Of a DNA stretch of 64,000 bases, positions 5,722 to 55,947 are shown piece after piece. Numbering within the stretch: the stretch's first letter is position 1; the number at the start of each line of letters is the position of its first letter. Source of the stretch: Escherichia phage BP32. The translations under genes were made by a program, and so were the position numbers. Under the pieces are notes generated by a model, which was given only the letters and a program-made list of their open reading frames with translations, ran no database searches and was not told where the DNA came from. The stretch lies in sequence record OR906198.1, one strand, 5' to 3'.

Positions 5722-5751
5722 GTTTACAAGTTGGCAAGGTTATGGTATAGT
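5722..5751 (+). promoter_or_regulatory. T4-type early promoter
   Basis: gtttacaagttggcaaggttatggtatagt. Confidence 0.65.
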
Positions 5752-37738: not shown

Positions 37739-38920
37739 ATGTCTATTGCAGATTTAAAATCCCGTTTGATTAAAGCTTCCACTTCTAAAATGACTGCTGA
37801 ACTGACTACATCTAAATTCTTTAATGAAAAGGATGTAATCCGTACAAAAATTCCAATGCTCAATATCGCTATTTCCGGCGCGATTGATGGTGGTATGCAG
37901 TCTGGTTTAACCATTTTTGCAGGTCCTTCTAAACACTTTAAATCAAATATGTCTTTGACTATGGTTGCGGCGTATTTGAACAAATATCCTGATGCGGTTT
38001 GTCTATTTTATGATAGCGAATTTGGTATTACTCCAGCTTATTTGCGATCCATGGGAGTTGACCCGGAACGAGTAATTCATACACCAATCCAGTCAGTTGA
38101 ACAACTGAAAATTGATATGGTGAATCAGCTTGAAGCTATTGAGCGCGGTGAAAAAGTTATTGTATTCATCGACTCAATCGGTAATATGGCTTCTAAGAAA
38201 GAAACGGAAGATGCCTTGAATGAAAAATCTGTGGCAGATATGACTCGTGCTAAATCACTGAAGTCATTATTCCGTATTGTTACTCCTTATTTTAGTATTA
38301 AAAACATTCCATGTGTTGCGGTTAACCATACAATTGAAACAATTGAAATGTTTAGTAAAACCGTGATGACAGGTGGTACAGGCGTAATGTATTCGGCTGA
38401 TACTGTATTCATTATCGGTAAGCGTCAGATTAAAGATGGTTCTGATCTTCAGGGGTATCAATTTGTTCTAAATGTAGAAAAATCTCGTACCGTCAAAGAA
38501 AAAAGTAAATTCTTTATTGATGTTAAATTTGACGGTGGTATCGATCCTTATTCTGGATTGTTAGATATGGCTCTTGAATTAGGATTTGTAGTAAAACCTA
38601 AAAATGGTTGGTATGCTCGTGAATTTCTTGACGAAGAAACCGGCGAGATGATTCGCGAAGAAAAATCTTGGCGCGCAAAAGATACCAATTGCACTACATT
38701 CTGGGGTCCTTTATTTAAGCATCAACCATTCCGAGATGCTATTAAACGTGCTTATCAGTTAGGTGCTATTGATAGTAATGAAATTGTTGAAGCTGAAGTC
38801 GACGAATTGATTAACTCAAAGGTTGAAAAATTTAAATCTCCAGAAAGTAAAAGTAAATCAGCAGCTGATTTAGAAACTGACCTAGAACAGTTAAGTGGTA
38901 TGGAAGAATTTAATGAATAA
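37739..38920 (+). CDS. uvsX: RecA-like recombinase UvsX
   Basis: 393 aa; Walker A GPSKHFKS; sequence recognised. Confidence 0.97.
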   Translation: MSIADLKSRLIKASTSKMTAELTTSKFFNEKDVIRTKIPMLNIAISGAIDGGMQSGLTIFAGPSKHFKSNMSLTMVAAYLNKYPDAVCLFYDSEFGITPAYLRSMGVDPERVIHTPIQSVEQLKIDMVNQLEAIERGEKVIVFIDSIGNMASKKETEDALNEKSVADMTRAKSLKSLFRIVTPYFSIKNIPCVAVNHTIETIEMFSKTVMTGGTGVMYSADTVFIIGKRQIKDGSDLQGYQFVLNVEKSRTVKEKSKFFIDVKFDGGIDPYSGLLDMALELGFVVKPKNGWYAREFLDEETGEMIREEKSWRAKDTNCTTFWGPLFKHQPFRDAIKRAYQLGAIDSNEIVEAEVDELINSKVEKFKSPESKSKSAADLETDLEQLSGMEEFNE

Positions 38921-39251
38921 AGATGATTTAGATTTAGAAATTATCGATGAATCCCCCTCTTCGGAGGGGGAAGAAGAAAGAAAAGAACGTCTTTTTAATG
39001 AATCTCTTAAGATAATTAAATCTGCCATGGAAAATGTTATCCAGGAGATTGTCATTAAACTAGAAGATGGTTCTACACACATTGTGTATGTGACAAAATT
39101 AGATTGGGTTGATGGAAAAGTCGTAATGGACTTTGCTGTTCTTGACCAAGAAAGAAAAGCTGAGTTAGCTCCTCATGTAGAAAAATGTATTACAATGCAA
39201 CTACAAGATGCATTTAATAAAAGGTCAAAGAAAAAATTTAAATTCTTTTAA
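38913..39251 (+). CDS. 40: gp40 head assembly protein
   Basis: ATG overlaps uvsX stop; position between uvsX and 41. Confidence 0.7.
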   Translation: MNKDDLDLEIIDESPSSEGEEERKERLFNESLKIIKSAMENVIQEIVIKLEDGSTHIVYVTKLDWVDGKVVMDFAVLDQERKAELAPHVEKCITMQLQDAFNKRSKKKFKFF

Positions 39252-39260
39252 GGAGTAAGT

Positions 39261-40688
39261 GTGGTAGAAATTATTCTTTCTCATCTCATATTTGATCAAG
39301 CTTATTTTTCAAAAGTTTGGCCATATATGGATTCAGAATATTTTGAAAGTGGTCCAGCTAAAAATACATTCAAATTAATTAAATCTCATGTTAATGAGTA
39401 CCATAGCGTTCCATCTATTAATGCGTTAAATGTTGCATTAGAAAATAGTTCATTTACTGAAACAGAATATTCTGGTGTAAAAACACTTATTTCAAAACTA
39501 ACCGATTCTCCGGAAGACCACAGCTGGTTAGTAAAAGAAACAGAAAAATATGTTCAGCAAAGGGCGATGTTTAATGCTACGTCTAAAATAATTGAAATTC
39601 AAACTAATGCTGAGCTTCCTCCGGAAAAACGAAATAAGAAAATGCCAGATGTAGGTGCTATTCCTGACATCATGCGCCAAGCATTATCAATTTCATTTGA
39701 TAGCTACGTTGGTCATGATTGGATGGATGACTACGAAGCACGTTGGCTATCTTATATGAATAAAGCTCGTAAGGTTCCATTTAAACTCAAAATTCTAAAT
39801 AAAATTACTAAAGGCGGAGCTGAAACTGGAACACTGAACGTTTTAATGGCTGGTGTTAACGTCGGTAAGTCATTAGGTCTGTGTTCATTAGCAGCAGATT
39901 ATTTGCAGCTCGGACATAATGTTCTTTACATTTCCATGGAAATGGCAGAAGAAGTTTGTGCTAAGCGTATTGATGCTAATATGCTTGATGTTTCTCTTGA
40001 TGACATTGATGATGGGCATATTTCTTACGCTGAATATAAAGGAAAAATGGAAAAATGGCGTGAGAAATCTACTCTTGGACGTTTAATCGTTAAACAGTAT
40101 CCTACTGGTGGAGCAGACGCTAATACATTTCGGTCGCTTTTAAATGAATTAAAGCTCAAGAAGAATTTTGTTCCAACAATCATTATTGTTGACTATCTAG
40201 GTATTTGTAAATCTTGCCGCATCAGAGTTTATTCAGAAAATAGTTACACAACTGTTAAAGCTATCGCAGAAGAATTACGTGCTCTGGCTGTTGAAACCGA
40301 AACTGTTCTTTGGACTGCAGCACAGGTTGGTAAACAAGCTTGGGATTCTTCTGATGTTAACATGAGCGATATTGCAGAATCTGCCGGTCTTCCAGCAACA
40401 GCCGATTTTATGCTTGCGGTCATTGAAACCGAGGAGTTAGCAGCTGCTGAACAACAACTCATTAAGCAAATCAAATCACGATATGGTGATAAGAATAAAT
40501 GGAATAAGTTTTTGATGGGTGTTCAAAAAGGAAATCAGAAATGGGTAGAAATTGAACAAGATTCTACTCCAACTGAAGTGAACGAAGTGGCAGGTTCACA
40601 GCAGATTCAAGCTGAGCAGAATCGCTATCAAAGAAACGAATCCGCTCGAGCTCAGTTAGATGCTTTGGCAAATGAATTAAAATTTTAG
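39261..40688 (+). CDS. 41: replicative DNA helicase (DnaB-like)
   Basis: 475 aa; Walker A GVNVGKS; GTG start; sequence recognised. Confidence 0.97.
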   Translation: MVEIILSHLIFDQAYFSKVWPYMDSEYFESGPAKNTFKLIKSHVNEYHSVPSINALNVALENSSFTETEYSGVKTLISKLTDSPEDHSWLVKETEKYVQQRAMFNATSKIIEIQTNAELPPEKRNKKMPDVGAIPDIMRQALSISFDSYVGHDWMDDYEARWLSYMNKARKVPFKLKILNKITKGGAETGTLNVLMAGVNVGKSLGLCSLAADYLQLGHNVLYISMEMAEEVCAKRIDANMLDVSLDDIDDGHISYAEYKGKMEKWREKSTLGRLIVKQYPTGGADANTFRSLLNELKLKKNFVPTIIIVDYLGICKSCRIRVYSENSYTTVKAIAEELRALAVETETVLWTAAQVGKQAWDSSDVNMSDIAESAGLPATADFMLAVIETEELAAAEQQLIKQIKSRYGDKNKWNKFLMGVQKGNQKWVEIEQDSTPTEVNEVAGSQQIQAEQNRYQRNESARAQLDALANELKF

Positions 40689-40717
40689 TTTACAAGCTGA
40701 CAAGACTATGGTATAGT
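40688..40717 (+). promoter_or_regulatory. T4-type early promoter with inverted repeat around the -10
   Basis: gtttacaagctgacaagactatggtatagtagtcttg; caagact/agtcttg inverted repeat. Confidence 0.65.
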
Positions 40718-40747
40718 AGTCTTGTTGGTTAAATTGGGGAAATTATT

Positions 40748-40939
40748 ATGGAATTAGCAAAGATTGTTTTTATTGGCTGGTTTGAAAATGGTAATATGTT
40801 TACCAAAGAAATCACTATGGATGTGTCTGATAAAGATCAAATTCTATGGGTCACTTCACAACTTGCTGAAGTTAATAAAGCTTTAGTTAAAGCATTTGTT
40901 AATGATAAAAAAGTTTTTGAATCTGATTGGCGAGGGTAA
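40748..40939 (+). CDS. small early protein, Dmd-like by position and size (candidate antitoxin against RnlA/LsoA-type toxins)
   Basis: 63 aa, first ORF downstream of gene 41 with its own early promoter; identity not verified. Confidence 0.4.
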   Translation: MELAKIVFIGWFENGNMFTKEITMDVSDKDQILWVTSQLAEVNKALVKAFVNDKKVFESDWRG

Positions 40940-40940
40940 T

Positions 40941-41183
40941 ATGCATACGGTTTTATTTAAACCTACTCCGTATAATGTTAGGAAAAATACTCAATTCAAA
41001 GCACTTGTTGCAGATACGTGGGAATTGGTGTTAGATATTCCAGCAGAAGAAAGTCCTCCATTTGGTCGAGTGGAATTTATTAAGTTTGCTGTGCGCCCTA
41101 CGAAGCGACAGATTCGTCAATGCAAAAGATACTTTCGTAAAATCGTCAAGTTAGAGAAACAGTTATTGATGCTAGTAAAATAG
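40941..41183 (+). CDS. hypothetical basic protein (80 aa)
   Basis: GAGGGTAA RBS. Confidence 0.5.
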   Translation: MHTVLFKPTPYNVRKNTQFKALVADTWELVLDIPAEESPPFGRVEFIKFAVRPTKRQIRQCKRYFRKIVKLEKQLLMLVK

Positions 41184-41185
41184 TA

Positions 41186-41215
41186 GTTTACAAGCTGATA
41201 GAGTTGTGTTATAGT
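41186..41215 (+). promoter_or_regulatory. T4-type early promoter with 10 bp inverted repeat
   Basis: gtttac...tatagt; agctgataga ... tctatcagct. Confidence 0.65.
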
Positions 41216-41246
41216 AATTCTATCAGCTAATCGCGGAGAAAAGAAA

Positions 41247-41501
41247 ATGATGCTAGTTAATAGAGAATATCAGTTTAAATCAGAAGAAGATTTGGAAAAA
41301 TTCGCAAGTGGTTGTGAACTGAATAGACGCACAGCTAAAGTCATAGGATTAAAACCCTTTACAGTTCTAGATTGTGAAGTTTCTAAATTCCGCAGAGGGT
41401 GTTCTATTAGCGGTCATGCTCTGGTTGATGGGAACACATTTTTCTTTGTTTTTAGCGTCAGAGAACTTTTATTGATTAACGAACTTGAGGAAATAAAATA
41501 G
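41247..41501 (+). CDS. hypothetical protein (84 aa)
   Basis: GGAGAAAA RBS. Confidence 0.55.
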   Translation: MMLVNREYQFKSEEDLEKFASGCELNRRTAKVIGLKPFTVLDCEVSKFRRGCSISGHALVDGNTFFFVFSVRELLLINELEEIK

Positions 41502-41558
41502 TTTACTTTTGTTGGAAATTGAGATACTATATAAACATAAACTACTGAGGAGATTATC

Positions 41559-41852
41559 ATGAAAAAATTTGTTTTTGCTGCAATTTTTGCTTTGGCTTCT
41601 TGTACTGCTCAGCCTGCTATGGCGGGTTATGATAAAGATTTGTGCGAATGGTCTATGACTGCAGATCAGACTGAGGTTGAAACTCAGATTGAAGCAGATA
41701 TTATGAATATCGTTGAGCGTGATCGCCCTGAAATGAAAGCTGAAGTACAAAAACAGCTTAAGTCTGGTGGTGTAATGCAGTATAATTACGTTTTGTATTG
41801 CGATAAAAACTTCAATAATAAAAATATCATCGCTGAAGTGGTAGGTGAATAA
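41559..41852 (+). CDS. sp: periplasmic protein Spackle (inhibits tail lysozyme; superinfection exclusion)
   Basis: 97 aa with signal peptide; sequence and size match my recollection of T4 Sp. Confidence 0.75.
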   Translation: MKKFVFAAIFALASCTAQPAMAGYDKDLCEWSMTADQTEVETQIEADIMNIVERDRPEMKAEVQKQLKSGGVMQYNYVLYCDKNFNNKNIIAEVVGE

Positions 41853-41864
41853 TTAGAGGTTAAT

Positions 41865-42029
41865 ATGAAAACATATAAAGAATTTATCAAAGAAGATATG
41901 GTCGCTGGAGATTCAGGTGGTAATCCTGAAAATATCTCTACTGGAACAACATCAGGTGCTGTAGTAAATAAAGGCCCTGAACAGATTCCTAAAAAGAAAA
42001 AAGAGGAATCTAAAGAAAAAGAAGAGTAA
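41865..42029 (+). CDS. hypothetical small protein (54 aa)
   Basis: AGAGG RBS; Lys/Glu-rich tail. Confidence 0.4.
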   Translation: MKTYKEFIKEDMVAGDSGGNPENISTGTTSGAVVNKGPEQIPKKKKEESKEKEE

Positions 42030-42031
42030 AA

Positions 42032-43060
42032 ATGTCATCAATACCTTGGATTGATAATGAGTTTGCATATCGTGCATTAGCTCATTTACCTAAATTCACA
42101 CAAGTAAATAATAGTTCAACTTTTAAATTACGGTTTAGATGCCCTGTTTGTGGAGATTCAAAAACCGACCAAAATAAAGCCCGTGGATGGTATTACGGTG
42201 ATAATAATGAAGGAAATATTCATTGTTATAACTGCAACTATCATGCACCAATCGGAATATATTTAAAGGAGTTTGAACCCGATTTATATCGTGAGTATAT
42301 CTTTGAAATAAGAAAAGAAAAAGGTAAAAGTCGTCCAGTAGAAAAACCTAAAGAACTTCCTAAACAACCTGAGAAGAAAATAATTAAATCTCTTCCGTCA
42401 TGCATTAGATTAGATAAACTGGCGGAAGACCATCCAATTATAAAATACGTAAAAGCTCGCTGTATTCCAAAGGATAAATGGAAATATCTTTGGTTTACAA
42501 CCGAATGGCCTAAATTAGTTAATAGCATAGCACCAGGAACATACAAAAAGGAAATACCTGAGTCTCGTCTTGTTATTCCAATTTATAATGCTAATGGAAA
42601 AGCCGAGTCTTTTCAAGGACGTGCATTAAAGAAAGATGCTCCTCAAAAATATATCACCATCAAAGCTTATCCTGAGGCAACAAAAATCTATGGAGTTGAA
42701 CGAGTTAAAGATGGTGATGTATATGTTCTAGAAGGACCTATAGATTCACTTTTTATTGAAAATGGTATAGCTATTACAGGTGGTCAATTAGACCTAGAAA
42801 TTGTTCCATTTAAAGATAGACGTGTATGGGTTTTAGATAATGAACCTCGTCACCCTGATACTATTAAACGAATGACTAAATTAGTTGATGCAGGAGAAAG
42901 GGTTATGTTTTGGGATAAATCTCCCTGGAAATCAAAAGATGTTAATGATATGATTAGAAAGGAAGGTGCAACCCCTGAACAAATTATGGAATATATGAAA
43001 AATAATATTGCCCAAGGGTTGATGGCTAAAATGCGGCTATCTAAATATGCTAAGATTTAA
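42032..43060 (+). CDS. 61: DNA primase
   Basis: 342 aa; zinc-binding motif CPVCGDSK; Toprim-like region. Confidence 0.93.
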   Translation: MSSIPWIDNEFAYRALAHLPKFTQVNNSSTFKLRFRCPVCGDSKTDQNKARGWYYGDNNEGNIHCYNCNYHAPIGIYLKEFEPDLYREYIFEIRKEKGKSRPVEKPKELPKQPEKKIIKSLPSCIRLDKLAEDHPIIKYVKARCIPKDKWKYLWFTTEWPKLVNSIAPGTYKKEIPESRLVIPIYNANGKAESFQGRALKKDAPQKYITIKAYPEATKIYGVERVKDGDVYVLEGPIDSLFIENGIAITGGQLDLEIVPFKDRRVWVLDNEPRHPDTIKRMTKLVDAGERVMFWDKSPWKSKDVNDMIRKEGATPEQIMEYMKNNIAQGLMAKMRLSKYAKI

Positions 43061-43257
43061 ATTAACCCAACTAAAGCAAATGCTAAATCTACGAATGTAT
43101 CAAGAGTAATTACTGGAATACTAACGCCATGAGCAATAGCAACTGGCGATAAAACAAAATTCCAAAGTAAAATTCCTATCATAGCAGAAATAGTAAAAGC
43201 TATACGTTTTTTATTACCTTTGATGGCATTAACAAGTGCCATTAATTTTTGTACCAT
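43057..43257 (-). CDS. small membrane protein on the opposite strand (66 aa, 2 TM)
   Basis: only minus-strand ORF lying in an intergenic gap; AAGGAGG RBS 8 nt upstream; ATAAATA late-promoter-like element upstream. Confidence 0.5.
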   Translation of the reverse strand: MVQKLMALVNAIKGNKKRIAFTISAMIGILLWNFVLSPVAIAHGVSIPVITLDTFVDLAFALVGLI

Positions 43258-43306
43258 GCGTCGTCCTCCTTTAAATTAAATATTTATCGCAAATTTTACA
43301 AAATTT

Positions 43307-43336
43307 GTTTACTTTCTCAGCTTGTTGTGGTATTAT
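43307..43336 (+). promoter_or_regulatory. T4-type early promoter
   Basis: gtttactttctcagcttgttgtggtattat. Confidence 0.65.
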
Positions 43337-43361
43337 AAAATAAACTGCTGAGGATAATATA

Positions 43362-44701
<1,340 letters not shown>

Positions 44702-44702
44702 C

Positions 44703-44725
44703 TGCTTATATTCAAATGATATAAT
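44703..44725 (+). promoter_or_regulatory. candidate middle promoter (MotA box TGCTT plus -10 TATAAT)
   Basis: ctgcttata then 12 bp then tataat upstream of gene 56. Confidence 0.4.
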
Positions 44726-44759
44726 TATTTAACTTATTAATGAATTGAAAGGAAAAATA

Positions 44760-45278
44760 ATGGCTTACTTTAATGAATGTTCACAACTGATTGAAGGCGC
44801 TGATAAAGCTCAAAACGAATACTGGGATATTCTCGGTGATGAAAAAGACCCGCTGCAGGTTATGCTTGATATGCAGAAATCTTTACAGGTTCGTTTAGCT
44901 AAAGATAAACCTGAATATAACCGTCATCCTGATGATTTGGCTACTGCTGGTGAAGTTGTTGATTGGCTACGTAATCAGAAAGATTATATTGACGATGAAT
45001 TCCGTGAACTTCTGACATCTCTTGGCGGTATGAGCAATGGCGAAAAAGATGCATCTGCTGTATGGAAGCCTTGGAAAGCTCAACACGGTGAACGCCGCGA
45101 AACTCTAATTACTGATTTGTCTCCACAAGACCAGTTGGAAATTAAATTCGAAATGATTGATATTCTTCATTTCGTTCTGAACATGTTCCAAGGTCTTGGT
45201 CTTACGGCTGAAGAAATCTTTAAACTTTATTATCTGAAAAATGCTGAAAACTTCGCTCGTCAAGACCGAGGTTATTAA
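44760..45278 (+). CDS. 56: dCTP pyrophosphatase (dCTPase/dUTPase)
   Basis: sequence recognised; AAGGAAA RBS before ATG 44760. Confidence 0.93.
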   Translation: MAYFNECSQLIEGADKAQNEYWDILGDEKDPLQVMLDMQKSLQVRLAKDKPEYNRHPDDLATAGEVVDWLRNQKDYIDDEFRELLTSLGGMSNGEKDASAVWKPWKAQHGERRETLITDLSPQDQLEIKFEMIDILHFVLNMFQGLGLTAEEIFKLYYLKNAENFARQDRGY

Positions 45279-54759: not shown

Positions 54760-54975
54760 ATGAAACGTAAAACTGTTCAGAATTGCACTAATGACGAATT
54801 TGAAGATGTATTATTTGATCCAGATTTGGTAGTGGTTCAAAAGGAACATACTGTTAAGTTTACTCACTTGACTTCGGTTTATGTGTATGAAAAGGTTGGT
54901 GATAAACAACCAATTTACGGTGTATTTCGTGAAATTACTGAAGATGGCACAACTTACTGGAAGGAAATTTATTAA
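54760..54975 (+). CDS. hypothetical protein (71 aa; Cef position)
   Basis: GAGGAAA RBS; size matches my recollection of T4 Cef; not verified. Confidence 0.45.
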
Positions 54976-55394
54976 TGGCTATTAAATTTGAAGTTAATAA
55001 ATGGTATCAATTTAAAAATAAACAAGCTCAAGAAAATTTTATTAAAGACCATACTGATAACGGAATCTATGCACGACGTTTAGGTATAGAACCTTTTAAA
55101 ATTTTAGATGTTGACTATTACGGGCGTCCTACTAAAATTGTGACATCTACTGGCACAATTGGATATTCAACATGTGGTACAGTCATTGACGAAAACTTTA
55201 TCTGGCTCTCTACTAACGAAGCTGAGTTCTTTGATGAAGTTGAAAATCCATACCAGGCTGCTGAAGAACAAGAGCAGGAAGAGCAAGAACAAATAGAAGA
55301 TTTCACAGAATTCCCGGTAATGAAAGTTACTATTGAAAATAATGAACAGGCATGGTCCTTGTATCAGATGTTGAAAGCACACTTTAAGGAATAA
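54975..55394 (+). CDS. hypothetical protein with acidic EQ-repeat (139 aa; GoF position)
   Basis: ATG overlaps upstream stop; [10 protein letters not shown] low-complexity segment. Confidence 0.5.
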
Positions 55395-55575: not shown

Positions 55576-55947
55576 ATGTTTAAAATCGGTAAGAAATATC
55601 GTGTTCGCGAAGGTGAAGAAAAGAAATATCTACTTTCTTCTATTTATAGGAATAGTTCTATTAATACTGTAATATCTACAAGCGAATTTATCGTTGAAGA
55701 TATGAAAGGTCATAATGTTACAATGATTAGTACAGCATCTGGAAATGATGGAAAAATTCTTCACAGCTTTCAGAGTAATGTTCTAATTTATGATGAAGAA
55801 TTTGACTTCTTCGAAGAAGTTACAGAAGATTTTGATTTTGGATGCACCATCACTATGAAATCTGGTGACCCTCTTTCATTTACGGTTAAAGATGAAAGAA
55901 GTCGCTTGAGAATTATTAGTCTTCTTCAAGCCATTAAATTTGAGTGA
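55576..55947 (+). CDS. hypothetical protein (123 aa)
   Basis: ORF track. Confidence 0.55.
   Translation: MFKIGKKYRVREGEEKKYLLSSIYRNSSINTVISTSEFIVEDMKGHNVTMISTASGNDGKILHSFQSNVLIYDEEFDFFEEVTEDFDFGCTITMKSGDPLSFTVKDERSRLRIISLLQAIKFE

Follow-up and report, generated by a model that had tools for sequence, protein, structure and literature searches.

The gene 41-61 islet of Escherichia phage BP32: very probably a T-even anti-TA island of the RB3 type

Introduction

What do the small genes between the helicase gene 41 and the primase gene 61 of Escherichia phage BP32 encode, and how does their set compare with that of T4? We addressed this question in a 64,000-nt stretch of the phage genome (record OR906198.1), hereafter the window, in which the islet occupies positions 40748-42029, exactly from the ATG of a 63-aa ORF to the stop codon of a 54-aa ORF. 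The phage is RB3-like (98.5% nt identity) and belongs to Tequatrovirus. The locus is already known: it is the T4 "anti-TA island" that Srikant, Guegler and Laub published in 2022 (PMC9391042). The BP32 islet is very probably an RB3-type variant of this T-even island, with a three-unit architecture to which we assign proposed roles. The gene identities, architecture, conservation and hairpin covariation come from the present analysis, whereas we infer all biochemical activities in the islet from published work on T4 and RB69.

Gene content of the islet

The genes of the islet and its flanks are as follows.

39261..40688, + strand: gene 41, replicative helicase, left flank; a 475-aa ORF, carried as gene 41 in the RB3 and T4 annotations
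40748..40939, + strand: dmd, 63 aa; Pfam Dmd, phrog_2102 and PDB matches
40941..41183, + strand: 61.4 = tifA, predicted RNA-binding ToxN inhibitor; Pfam DUF7279, identity with T4 gp61.4
41247..41501, + strand: ORF3, 84 aa; phrog_2980 (3e-20), BLASTP match to the GoF N-terminal domain (NTD), AF2 model, Shine-Dalgarno sequence GGAG
41559..41852, + strand: sp (61.3), Spackle, 97 aa; Pfam T4_Spackle, PDB 6X6O, identity with T4
41853..41864, no strand: 12-nt spacer in the place of 61.2/adfA (empty slot); seen on aligning T4 and vB_EcoM_P8
41865..42029, + strand: 61.1, 54 aa; phrog_1823 (7e-34), 96% identical to T4 gp61.1
42032..43060, + strand: gene 61, primase, right flank; 98% identical to T4 gp61

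The preliminary description had placed five small ORFs between the helicase and primase genes, and all five are real genes on the same (+) strand. Each matched a PHROG family (3e-20 to 4e-46), and three exceeded Pfam cut-offs. NCBIfam and PADLOC matched none of the five proteins, and Rfam returned no match in 38000-45000 at E<=1. Overlapping alternative ORFs of 93, 48, 41 and 40 aa, read from either strand or another frame, matched no PHROG and were rejected as genes. On the left, gene 41 differs from T4 gp41 with a dN of 0.003. Direct comparison of the gene order, together with alignment, confirmed that the islet holds one ORF more than T4 before sp and one fewer after it, as stated in the preliminary description.

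Promoters, hairpins and repeats

The following elements were located around the islet genes.

40689..40717, + strand: early promoter P1, TTTACA-17-TATAGT with TG; 10/12 match, identical in T4
40695..40730, + strand: P1 hairpin, 15-bp; MFE z-score -5.4
41176..41184, no strand: left copy of the 9-nt direct repeat TAAAATAGT; tifA stop codon and start of the -35 element
41187..41215, + strand: early promoter P2, TTTACA-17-TATAGT; 10/12 match, inside the segment absent from T4
41193..41228, + strand: P2 hairpin; MFE -18 kcal/mol, z-score -3.7
41494..41502, no strand: right copy of TAAAATAGT; ORF3 stop codon and start of the P3 -35 element
41502..41530, + strand: early promoter P3, TTTACT-N17-TACTAT, upstream of sp; found by regex scan, identical in T4

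Early promoters had been proposed for the islet, two in number; we found three early-promoter-like sites, the first of which falls just outside 40748-42029. P1 and P2 share the 15 nt TAGTTTACAAGCTGA. According to PMC9391042, dmd-tifA is transcribed from an early promoter ahead of dmd, and the same paper mentions "a promoter downstream of tifA". The islet would comprise three transcription units, all immediate-early and all on the + strand: P1 would transcribe the dmd-tifA bicistron, P2 would serve ORF3, and P3 would serve sp-61.1 and read on into the primase gene 61.

In the P1 hairpin, the -10 element is held in the loop and the 3' arm. The P2 hairpin adopts the same register with a different stem sequence. 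Comparison with paralogous elements revealed covariation, with compensatory changes in seven of the 15 pairs and 97.8% of cells paired. P3 formed no hairpin (fold z-score 0.13). The promoter hairpins carry no U-tract, and no terminator-like sites were called. We found no description of a hairpin in such geometry, across the -10 element, in the literature examined; a covarying hairpin within several early promoters may merit a dedicated study. The repeat TAAAATAGT occurs three times in the 64 kb, and two of the copies, 318 bp apart, flank the P2-ORF3 cassette.

The dmd-tifA operon

The first gene after gene 41 is dmd, which lies behind an early promoter and is co-operonic with tifA, a single base separating its stop codon from the tifA ATG. 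Its product had been put forward beforehand as Dmd-like, and the similarity to Dmd was clear. It scored 94.1 bits against Pfam PF17587 (cut-off 27; 6.2e-27), with residues 1-63 on profile positions 1-60, and matched phrog_2102 (8e-35) and the PDB entries 5HY3_B (T4 Dmd, 1.8e-21) and 5I8J (1.8e-22). By homology with T4, Dmd would replace the labile antitoxins RnlB and LsoB, so that the HEPN RNase toxins RnlA and LsoA would be blocked.

The BP32 allele is divergent, with 66.7% aa identity to T4 Dmd, a dS of 0.90 and a dN/dS of 0.20. The divergence (dS 0.90, 33% aa) is confined exactly to the dmd ORF, the neighbouring genes showing dS values of 0.06-0.25, and the allele is a minority one, present in 24 of 798 Dmd records. 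Such a pattern could mean that the protein, still a genuine Dmd, has shifted its specificity to an RnlA/LsoA-family toxin other than that of T4 Dmd; the neighbouring TifA and AdfA are reportedly tuned to particular toxin variants (PMC9391042, PMC11257639). In that case, complementation on an rnlAB+ host might fail because of the shifted specificity. However, the dN/dS indicates conserved function and not diversifying selection, and the allele keeps the core motifs (GWF, MFTK, AEVN-ALVKAF, terminal RG). T4 Dmd itself already acts as an inhibitor of RnlA as well as of LsoA (Otsuka and Yonesaki 2012, as cited in PMC8266594). A shift of specificity is conceivable but rather unlikely, and we describe the BP32 protein as a predicted antitoxin mimic against RnlA/LsoA, whose specificity may differ from that of T4 Dmd.

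The second gene, 61.4, corresponds to tifA. Its product scored 71.6 bits against Pfam DUF7279 (cut-off 24.5; 5e-20) and is 86% identical to T4 gp61.4. PMC9391042 is the source for both the dmd-tifA operon and the notion of an "anti-TA island", and TifA is a published ToxN inhibitor (PMC9391042, PMC10853763). RNA binding and ToxN neutralisation need its Pro-Thr cap followed by a basic α-helix (PMC10853763). Both are intact in BP32, where the translation reads P53 T54 K55 R56 Q57 I58 R59 ... K62 R63 ... R66 K67. The protein is 80 aa long, compared to 85 in T4, with an altered C-terminal tail in which the last residues are replaced, and residue 41 is Phe (F41), as in the weaker T4 allele. ToxN inhibition is predicted by homology: TifA would bind ToxN along with RNA and would neutralise toxIN, a type III system. 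We note that 61.4 had been understated in the preliminary description, which did not reflect its match to the published TifA.

sp, 61.1 and the absent adfA

Spackle, which had been listed among the islet products, is present at full length (Pfam PF25676, 151.6 bits, 9e-45; PDB 6X6O, 2e-60) and is 96% identical to T4 Sp. Its N-terminus is hydrophobic and ends in AMA/GYD, and the 75-aa chain 7CN6 aligns with residues 23-97, which suggests residues 1-22 as a putative signal peptide. The exported protein would inhibit the gp5 tail lysozyme of superinfecting T-even phages in the periplasm and would thereby confer superinfection exclusion. The last gene of the islet, 61.1, encodes a protein with a lysine/glutamate-rich tail.

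The gene missing in comparison with T4 is 61.2, that is adfA (anti-DarT factor A), and it is cleanly absent. The 12-nt spacer left between sp and 61.1 keeps the last adfA codons (AGA GGT TAA), which provide 61.1 with its Shine-Dalgarno sequence. Searches with phmmer and tblastn detected no AdfA homolog in the whole window, including the space between sp and 61.1, and relocation of adfA to another place in the window was rejected on the same grounds. In the absence of the adfA cassette, the phage lacks an AdfA-type anti-DarT function at the islet. AdfA was found in 487 records compared to 798 for Dmd, and ~40% of the Dmd-bearing records have no AdfA match. In T2 and T4, adfN (gene 30.3) acts as the main factor against DarTG1 (PMC11257639); if adfN were present elsewhere in the BP32 genome, the tolerated loss of adfA would be explained. 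The earlier reading had not pointed out that 61.2 encodes a published anti-DarT factor.

One may ask whether the lack of 61.2 and the additional ORF could stem from an assembly artefact or a miscount. Nothing was found in favour of this. The junctions are clean, the same junctions recur in many independently sequenced phages (RB3 group, phiC600P9, Nami, EP01), and T2 is reported to be naturally devoid of adfA (PMC11257639), all of which leaves the artefact explanation a practically negligible chance. The composition of the islet predicts which TA defences would be evadable, namely RnlA/LsoA-type systems through Dmd and ToxN-type systems through TifA, with no AdfA to act on DarT. The practical value of such a prediction is modest.

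ORF3

ORF3, the additional gene, starts 8 nt downstream of its Shine-Dalgarno sequence GGAG. BLASTP aligned it with residues 7-47 of the T4 GoF NTD (2e-8), the N-terminal 41 aa being 37% identical, and residues 11-91 of T4 GoF match the whole of phrog_2980, the family of ORF3. The AF2 model (pLDDT 81.9) places β-strands at residues 7-10, 38-45, 52-60, 63-71 and 80-82, with two helices between β1 and β2. In BFVD, the model matched T4 MotB.1 (P39415, 2.8e-4) and the N-terminal domains of many other T4-like phage proteins (query TM 0.5-0.8). No PDB fold was matched at E<=0.001, the search returning only generic, insignificant SH3-like barrels. ORF3 has the length of the N-terminal domain alone, with neither linker nor C-terminal domain (CTD), and its subfamily carries a specific conserved set, C23/C43/C52/H57, that is absent from GoF. 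ORF3 is the counterpart of the N-terminal domain in the LSm-like GoF/MotB.1/Frd.2 family and lacks the CTD.

RefSeq records of RB3 and other phages label this gene goF, the T4 "mRNA metabolism modulator", which would imply GoF function. The label agrees with the match to phrog_2980, itself labelled "goF" (3e-20), and with the N-terminal identity given above. Nevertheless, a separate, full-length goF occupies the T4 position in the window:

54975-55394: true goF, full-length

Moreover, T4 GoF scores best in phrog_622 (5e-38) and only 5.5e-6 in phrog_2980. ORF3 lacks the CTD entirely, has Gly at the position aligned with GoF D25, and bears the Cys/His set that GoF does not have. A goF orthologue is ~140 aa long, belongs to phrog_622 and lies upstream of gene 39, and ORF3 shares none of these features. 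It is very unlikely that ORF3 is goF; the RefSeq label reflects remote homology only, and a propagated misannotation is hereby corrected. As for the family itself, no clear phenotype was seen for wild-type GoF and MotB.1 (PMC12152347).

T4 has no ORF3, nor do most Tequatrovirus records; only 70 records hold it at >=95% identity, and it has no family in Pfam or NCBIfam. An exhaustive HMMER search against 1.8 billion representatives gave three matches, of which one is a true homolog (cluster); the other two were rejected, one being a spurious C2H2 zinc-finger protein and the other a repeat protein that contains SH3-like units. This scarcity would suit a remnant in decay, a GoF-family duplicate that has been truncated, or an ORF that arose by chance and rides on a promoter cassette. 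Against such origins, comparison with the SP18 (Gaprivervirus) homolog gave a pN of 0.30 and a saturated pS of 0.80, so the gene is under purifying selection. In metagenomic phages ORF3 retains 80% aa identity, compared to 67% for Spackle and 40-44% for TifA. It also has its own promoter and Shine-Dalgarno sequence, and its confidently predicted fold matches those of family members. We thus regard a remnant or chance ORF as highly improbable.

In all four phage groups examined, ORF3 is located in the 41-61 islet, in four different positions or arrangements. Its identities (80% and 55%) roughly parallel those of gp41 in the same phages (87% and 65%), and recent horizontal transfer was therefore unsupported. 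We also searched for a natural "empty site" with a synthetic junction joining the window-type tifA end to P3; the top matches were all two-piece and contained ORF3.

Returning to ORF3 as a functional gene, its product, a predicted small LSm/SH3-like β-barrel, might act as an early host-takeover or counter-defence factor, via RNA or a host nuclease or toxin; we put this forward only tentatively. A more specific and distinctly speculative proposal, to which we assign a low probability, is that ORF3 is a new counter-defence protein, an LSm/SH3-like barrel with a Cys3-His set that would neutralise a host RNase or TA-type defence, or shield early phage mRNA, encoded in its own promoter-hairpin cassette that moves within the island. 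Since ORF3 resides in the island in four of four groups and is under purifying selection, it is a reasonable candidate for counter-defence screens.

Comparison with known systems

In T4, the island between genes 41 and 61 has the order dmd, 61.4 (tifA), sp, 61.2 (adfA), 61.1 (PMC9391042). The BP32 islet agrees with it in position, orientation, the P1-driven dmd-tifA operon and the P3-sp-61.1 unit, and TifA, Sp, 61.1 and gp61 share 86-98% identity with their T4 counterparts. It differs in the absence of adfA, in the extra P2-ORF3 cassette between tifA and sp, in Dmd, which is 67% identical, and in the replaced end of TifA. The identical order, with ORF3 present and the adfA slot empty, is found in RB3, RB5, RB6, RB7, RB9 and RB10 (KM606994-KM606999, NC_025419), with 98.5% nt identity over 1.55 kb and point differences of ~1.5%. 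Further downstream, dam.1 of RB3 leads directly to gene 56, the stretch shown containing neither ORF186 nor dam, whereas the BP32 window has both.

[quoted passage not shown] 2025, PMC12152347). ORF3 resembles them in the NTD alignment, the five β-strands of its model and its status as an early gene with its own promoter. Unlike them, it has no linker or CTD and carries the C23/C43/C52/H57 set not found in GoF. It resides in the anti-TA island and not in the neighbourhood of gene 39, motB or frd.

The P2-ORF3 segment can also be compared with the promoter-early stem-loop (PeSL) cassettes of T4-type phages (Arbiol 2010, PMC2839356; Comeau 2014, PMC4122927). As in PeSLs, a strong early promoter and a stable intergenic stem-loop stand beside an ORF that varies among close relatives, and the cassette is bracketed by short direct repeats. 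In contrast to the published PeSLs, whose stem-loop lies upstream of the promoter, the BP32 stem-loop spans the spacer and the -10 element. It has no U-tract, no terminator was called, and the left junction relative to T4 falls within the 3' end of tifA and not within a PeSL. Taken together, the differences from T4 consist of cassette presence or absence and allele swaps, typical of hyperplastic PeSL-like regions in T4-like phages.

Organisation of the islet

The preliminary description placed five small ORFs between gene 41 and gene 61; they were recovered on one strand with exactly those coordinates. Its interpretation also held, and the locus proved better characterised than it knew: this is the anti-TA island already published for T-even phages. 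Where two early promoters had been counted, we saw three early-promoter-like sites (P1, P2 and P3).

Features of the islet and of related genes in the window
39261-40688, gene 41 (helicase), left flank of the islet
40689-40717, P1, early-promoter-like site before dmd
40748-40939, dmd, 63 aa (Pfam PF17587, PDB T4 Dmd)
40941-41183, tifA (gp61.4), 80 aa (Pfam DUF7279)
41187-41215, P2, early-promoter-like site before ORF3
41247-41501, ORF3, 84 aa (phrog_2980)
41502-41530, P3, early-promoter-like site before sp
41559-41852, sp (Spackle), 97 aa (PDB 6X6O)
41865-42029, 61.1, 54 aa (gp61.1)
42032-43060, gene 61 (primase), right flank of the islet
43362-43922, + strand, 186-aa ORF, PD-(D/E)XK-like
43922-44701, dam, Dam methyltransferase gene
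55576-55947, + strand, GoF-type paralog, 123 aa (phrog_622, 4e-28)

The window belongs to a T-even (Tequatrovirus) genome. Across 1.55 kb round the islet, identity was 98.5-98.6% to RB3, RB5, RB6, RB7, RB9, RB10 and phage 132, and partial matches to the region occurred in 552 phage records; the configuration is already deposited for the RB3 group and will not surprise a specialist. All five islet proteins matched PHROG families (3e-20 to 4e-46), and three of the five exceeded Pfam gathering thresholds. Overlapping ORFs in other frames and on the minus strand gave zero matches, and an Rfam search of the islet region returned no RNA families.

Dmd and TifA

Identification of the 63-aa ORF as Dmd was borne out by Pfam PF17587 (94 bits, cut-off 27) and by PDB matches to T4 Dmd (5HY3_B, 1.8e-21) and the Dmd chain 5I8J (1.8e-22). 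Identity to T4 Dmd was only 66.7%, with a 3-residue insertion. In the alignment, divergence from T4 stopped at the ORF limits, and dmd had a dS of 0.90 and a dN/dS of 0.20, versus a dS of 0.06-0.25 in neighbouring genes. The allele is an old one, brought in by recombination and kept by purifying selection, and it is in the minority, with 24 of the 798 records that hold Dmd.

Gene 61.4, now named tifA, shares a transcript with dmd and encodes an inhibitor of the ToxN toxin (PMC9391042); inhibition needs RNA binding via a Pro-Thr-capped basic helix (PMC10853763). The window protein, 86% identical to its T4 counterpart, retained P53, T54, K55, R56 and R59, carried the weaker, T4-type F41, and differed from T4 in its last C-terminal residues. 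The vB_EcoM_P8 tifA bears the misleading label 'DNA polymerase'.

Differences from T4 and the adfA slot

The T4 order is dmd, 61.4, sp, 61.2, 61.1. Alignment with T4 upheld the remark that the islet holds one more ORF before sp and one fewer after it, and a four-way alignment located two changes, a replacement between tifA and P3 and the absence of 61.2. In the former, ~40 bp of T4, from the last tifA codons as far as the sp promoter's -35, become ~335 bp containing a new TifA tail, the early promoter P2 and ORF3. In the latter, the 627-bp T4 gene is reduced to a 12-nt spacer with its last codons, AGA GGT TAA, which provide the Shine-Dalgarno sequence of 61.1.

Gene 61.2 is adfA, anti-DarT factor A (PMC9391042; PMC11257639), and no AdfA homolog was found anywhere in the 64-kb window. 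This absence is a common polymorphism. The gene is naturally missing from T2, and a test of 17 Tevenvirinae phages showed it in only 13 (PMC11257639); the phage collection held AdfA in 487 records vs Dmd in 798. Deletion of adfA in T4 gave no DarTG1 phenotype, since AdfN (gp30.3) is the main factor (PMC11257639). The slot itself is modular. In IME340 (L005 1563-1919) and PD112 (L006 1554-1910) it is occupied by a 118-aa protein that shares with AdfA only the last 14 residues, SIDDQIFNAFMNRG; in a metagenomic phage (L009 3984-4973), a 144-aa AdfA-like gene is followed by a 68-aa ORF with a similar C-terminal motif, SIDDQIFNAFLKRGE.

The 97-aa ORF was rightly called Spackle (96% identity to T4 Sp; PDB 6X6O, 2e-60). 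The 75-aa chain 7CN6 aligned to its residues 23-97, which fits a signal peptide of 22 residues. The gp61.1 protein was 96% identical to that of T4; 61.1 of vB_EcoM_P8 is misleadingly labelled 'major capsid domain-containing protein', and the vB_Eco_F25 islet also contains a 'major capsid protein' label.

ORF3, a small member of the GoF-related family

ORF3 matched phrog_2980 ('goF mRNA metabolism modulator') at 3e-20, and its residues 4-44 were 37% identical to residues 7-47 of T4 GoF. We rejected its identification as goF: a separate goF is present in the window, at 54975-55394, and T4 GoF falls in phrog_622, not phrog_2980, which it matched weakly via N-terminal domain residues 11-91. The 123-aa paralog adjoins goF on the downstream side, and the window holds at least three LSm-like family members, ORF3 included. 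In the public annotations examined (NC_025419.1, PV390659.2, OP870144.1, NC_000866.4), ORF3 is misleadingly labelled 'goF mRNA metabolism modulator' and gp41 'AAA family ATPase'; T4 dexA.2, publicly labelled 'dextranase', is another misleading name.

By sequence match and predicted fold, ORF3 corresponds to the N-terminal domain, alone, described by Kim et al. (PMC12152347) for the GoF/MotB.1/Frd.2 LSm-like fold family. Its AlphaFold2 model (pLDDT 81.9, pTM 0.71) has five strands and in BFVD matched T4 MotB.1 (P39415, 2.8e-4), as well as the N-terminal domains of many T4-like phage proteins (query TM 0.5-0.8); a PDB fold search gave only generic SH3-like barrels, none significant. The library protein P0007 (395 aa), with five tandem ~80-aa units, matched ORF3 in its C-terminal half at 7.8e-7 and, weakly, the Pfam Mind-bomb SH3 repeat and KOW motif, consistent with an SH3-like barrel origin of the fold.

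ORF3 is a genuine gene on several counts: a promoter of its own precedes it, with a GGAG Shine-Dalgarno 8 nt before the start codon; against the Gaprivervirus SP18 homolog, pN falls below pS (0.30 and 0.80, the latter saturated); it is conserved in metagenomic T4-like phages (80% identity vs 67% for Spackle and 40-44% for TifA); and C23, C43, C52 and H57, which GoF lacks, are conserved across its subfamily.

We found ORF3 in 70 records of Tequatrovirus and in 13 others that are more distant. The four phage groups examined all had it within the 41-61 islet, each at a different position: after tifA in the window, straight behind gene 41 in SP18, just ahead of tifA in L008, and upstream of a 50-aa ORF, then tifA, in L009 and L010. 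L008-L010 are Logan metagenome contigs of T4-like phages (gp41 87% identical to the window's), in which a 253-aa ORF separates gene 41 from the ORF3 homolog. There the homolog takes the position upstream of tifA that dmd has in T4, and the fetched stretches yielded no Dmd homolog. A 9-nt direct repeat, TAAAATAGT, flanks the P2-ORF3 cassette with copies 318 bp apart, each covering a stop codon and the beginning of a -35 element; this is suggestive, as recombination between the copies would cut out the cassette precisely. Our best guess for the role of ORF3 is counter-defence or RNA protection, because it resides in the anti-TA island and its family is suspected of RNA action.

A nuclease-like ORF beside dam

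The stop codon of the 186-aa ORF overlaps the dam ATG. Several results suggest that its product has a PD-(D/E)XK restriction-endonuclease fold: PADLOC REase_II matched at 4.8e-5, a Pfam DpnII match was sub-threshold, D72, E85 and K87 were invariant in the alignment, and the AF2 model (pLDDT 79) matched mainly PD-(D/E)XK-type nuclease folds, including VC1899, AF1548, Bax1, Can2, McrC and Hjc. The ORF is present in ~155 T-even records, T2 among them; at least two related phages without it retain only the last 28 codons, and T4 has ~310 bp there with no annotated gene. A candidate nuclease whose translation is coupled to that of a GATC methylase, in a lytic phage, may merit separate study.

Hairpins at early promoters

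P1 and P2 have 15 nt in common, TAGTTTACAAGCTGA, and each carries a 15-bp hairpin that has its 5' arm inside the -35/-10 spacer and the TGnTATAGT element in its loop and 3' arm (fold z-scores -5.4 for P1 and -3.7 for P2). In an alignment of six such elements (P1, P2, the element at 5723, T4 P1 and, from two metagenomic phages, the promoter of ORF3), 97.8% of cells were paired and 7 of 15 pairs had compensatory double changes; register-shifted controls paired in only 26-63% of cells. On these grounds, the hairpin structure appears to be under selection. Early-promoter-like sites were enriched in such hairpins window-wide (pattern TTTAC-N17-TAnnnT): 8 of 24 had hairpins of ≤-15 kcal/mol, vs 0.6% of random 46-mers; plus-strand examples are at 715, 5723, 9917, 43308, 52713, 53818 and 63099. 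About one-third of the sites thus have a strong hairpin from the -35/-10 spacer to downstream of the -10. At several, the Shine-Dalgarno lies within the 3' arm, so that the hairpin would mask the ribosome-binding site in read-through transcripts only, leaving it unmasked in promoter-initiated ones.

We found no description of such hairpin geometry at early promoters in the literature accessible to our analysis. The window hairpins resemble promoter/stem-loop (PeSL) cassettes, through which modules are shuffled in T4-type phages (PMC2839356, PMC4122927); unlike them, however, the published stem-loops lie upstream of the promoter.
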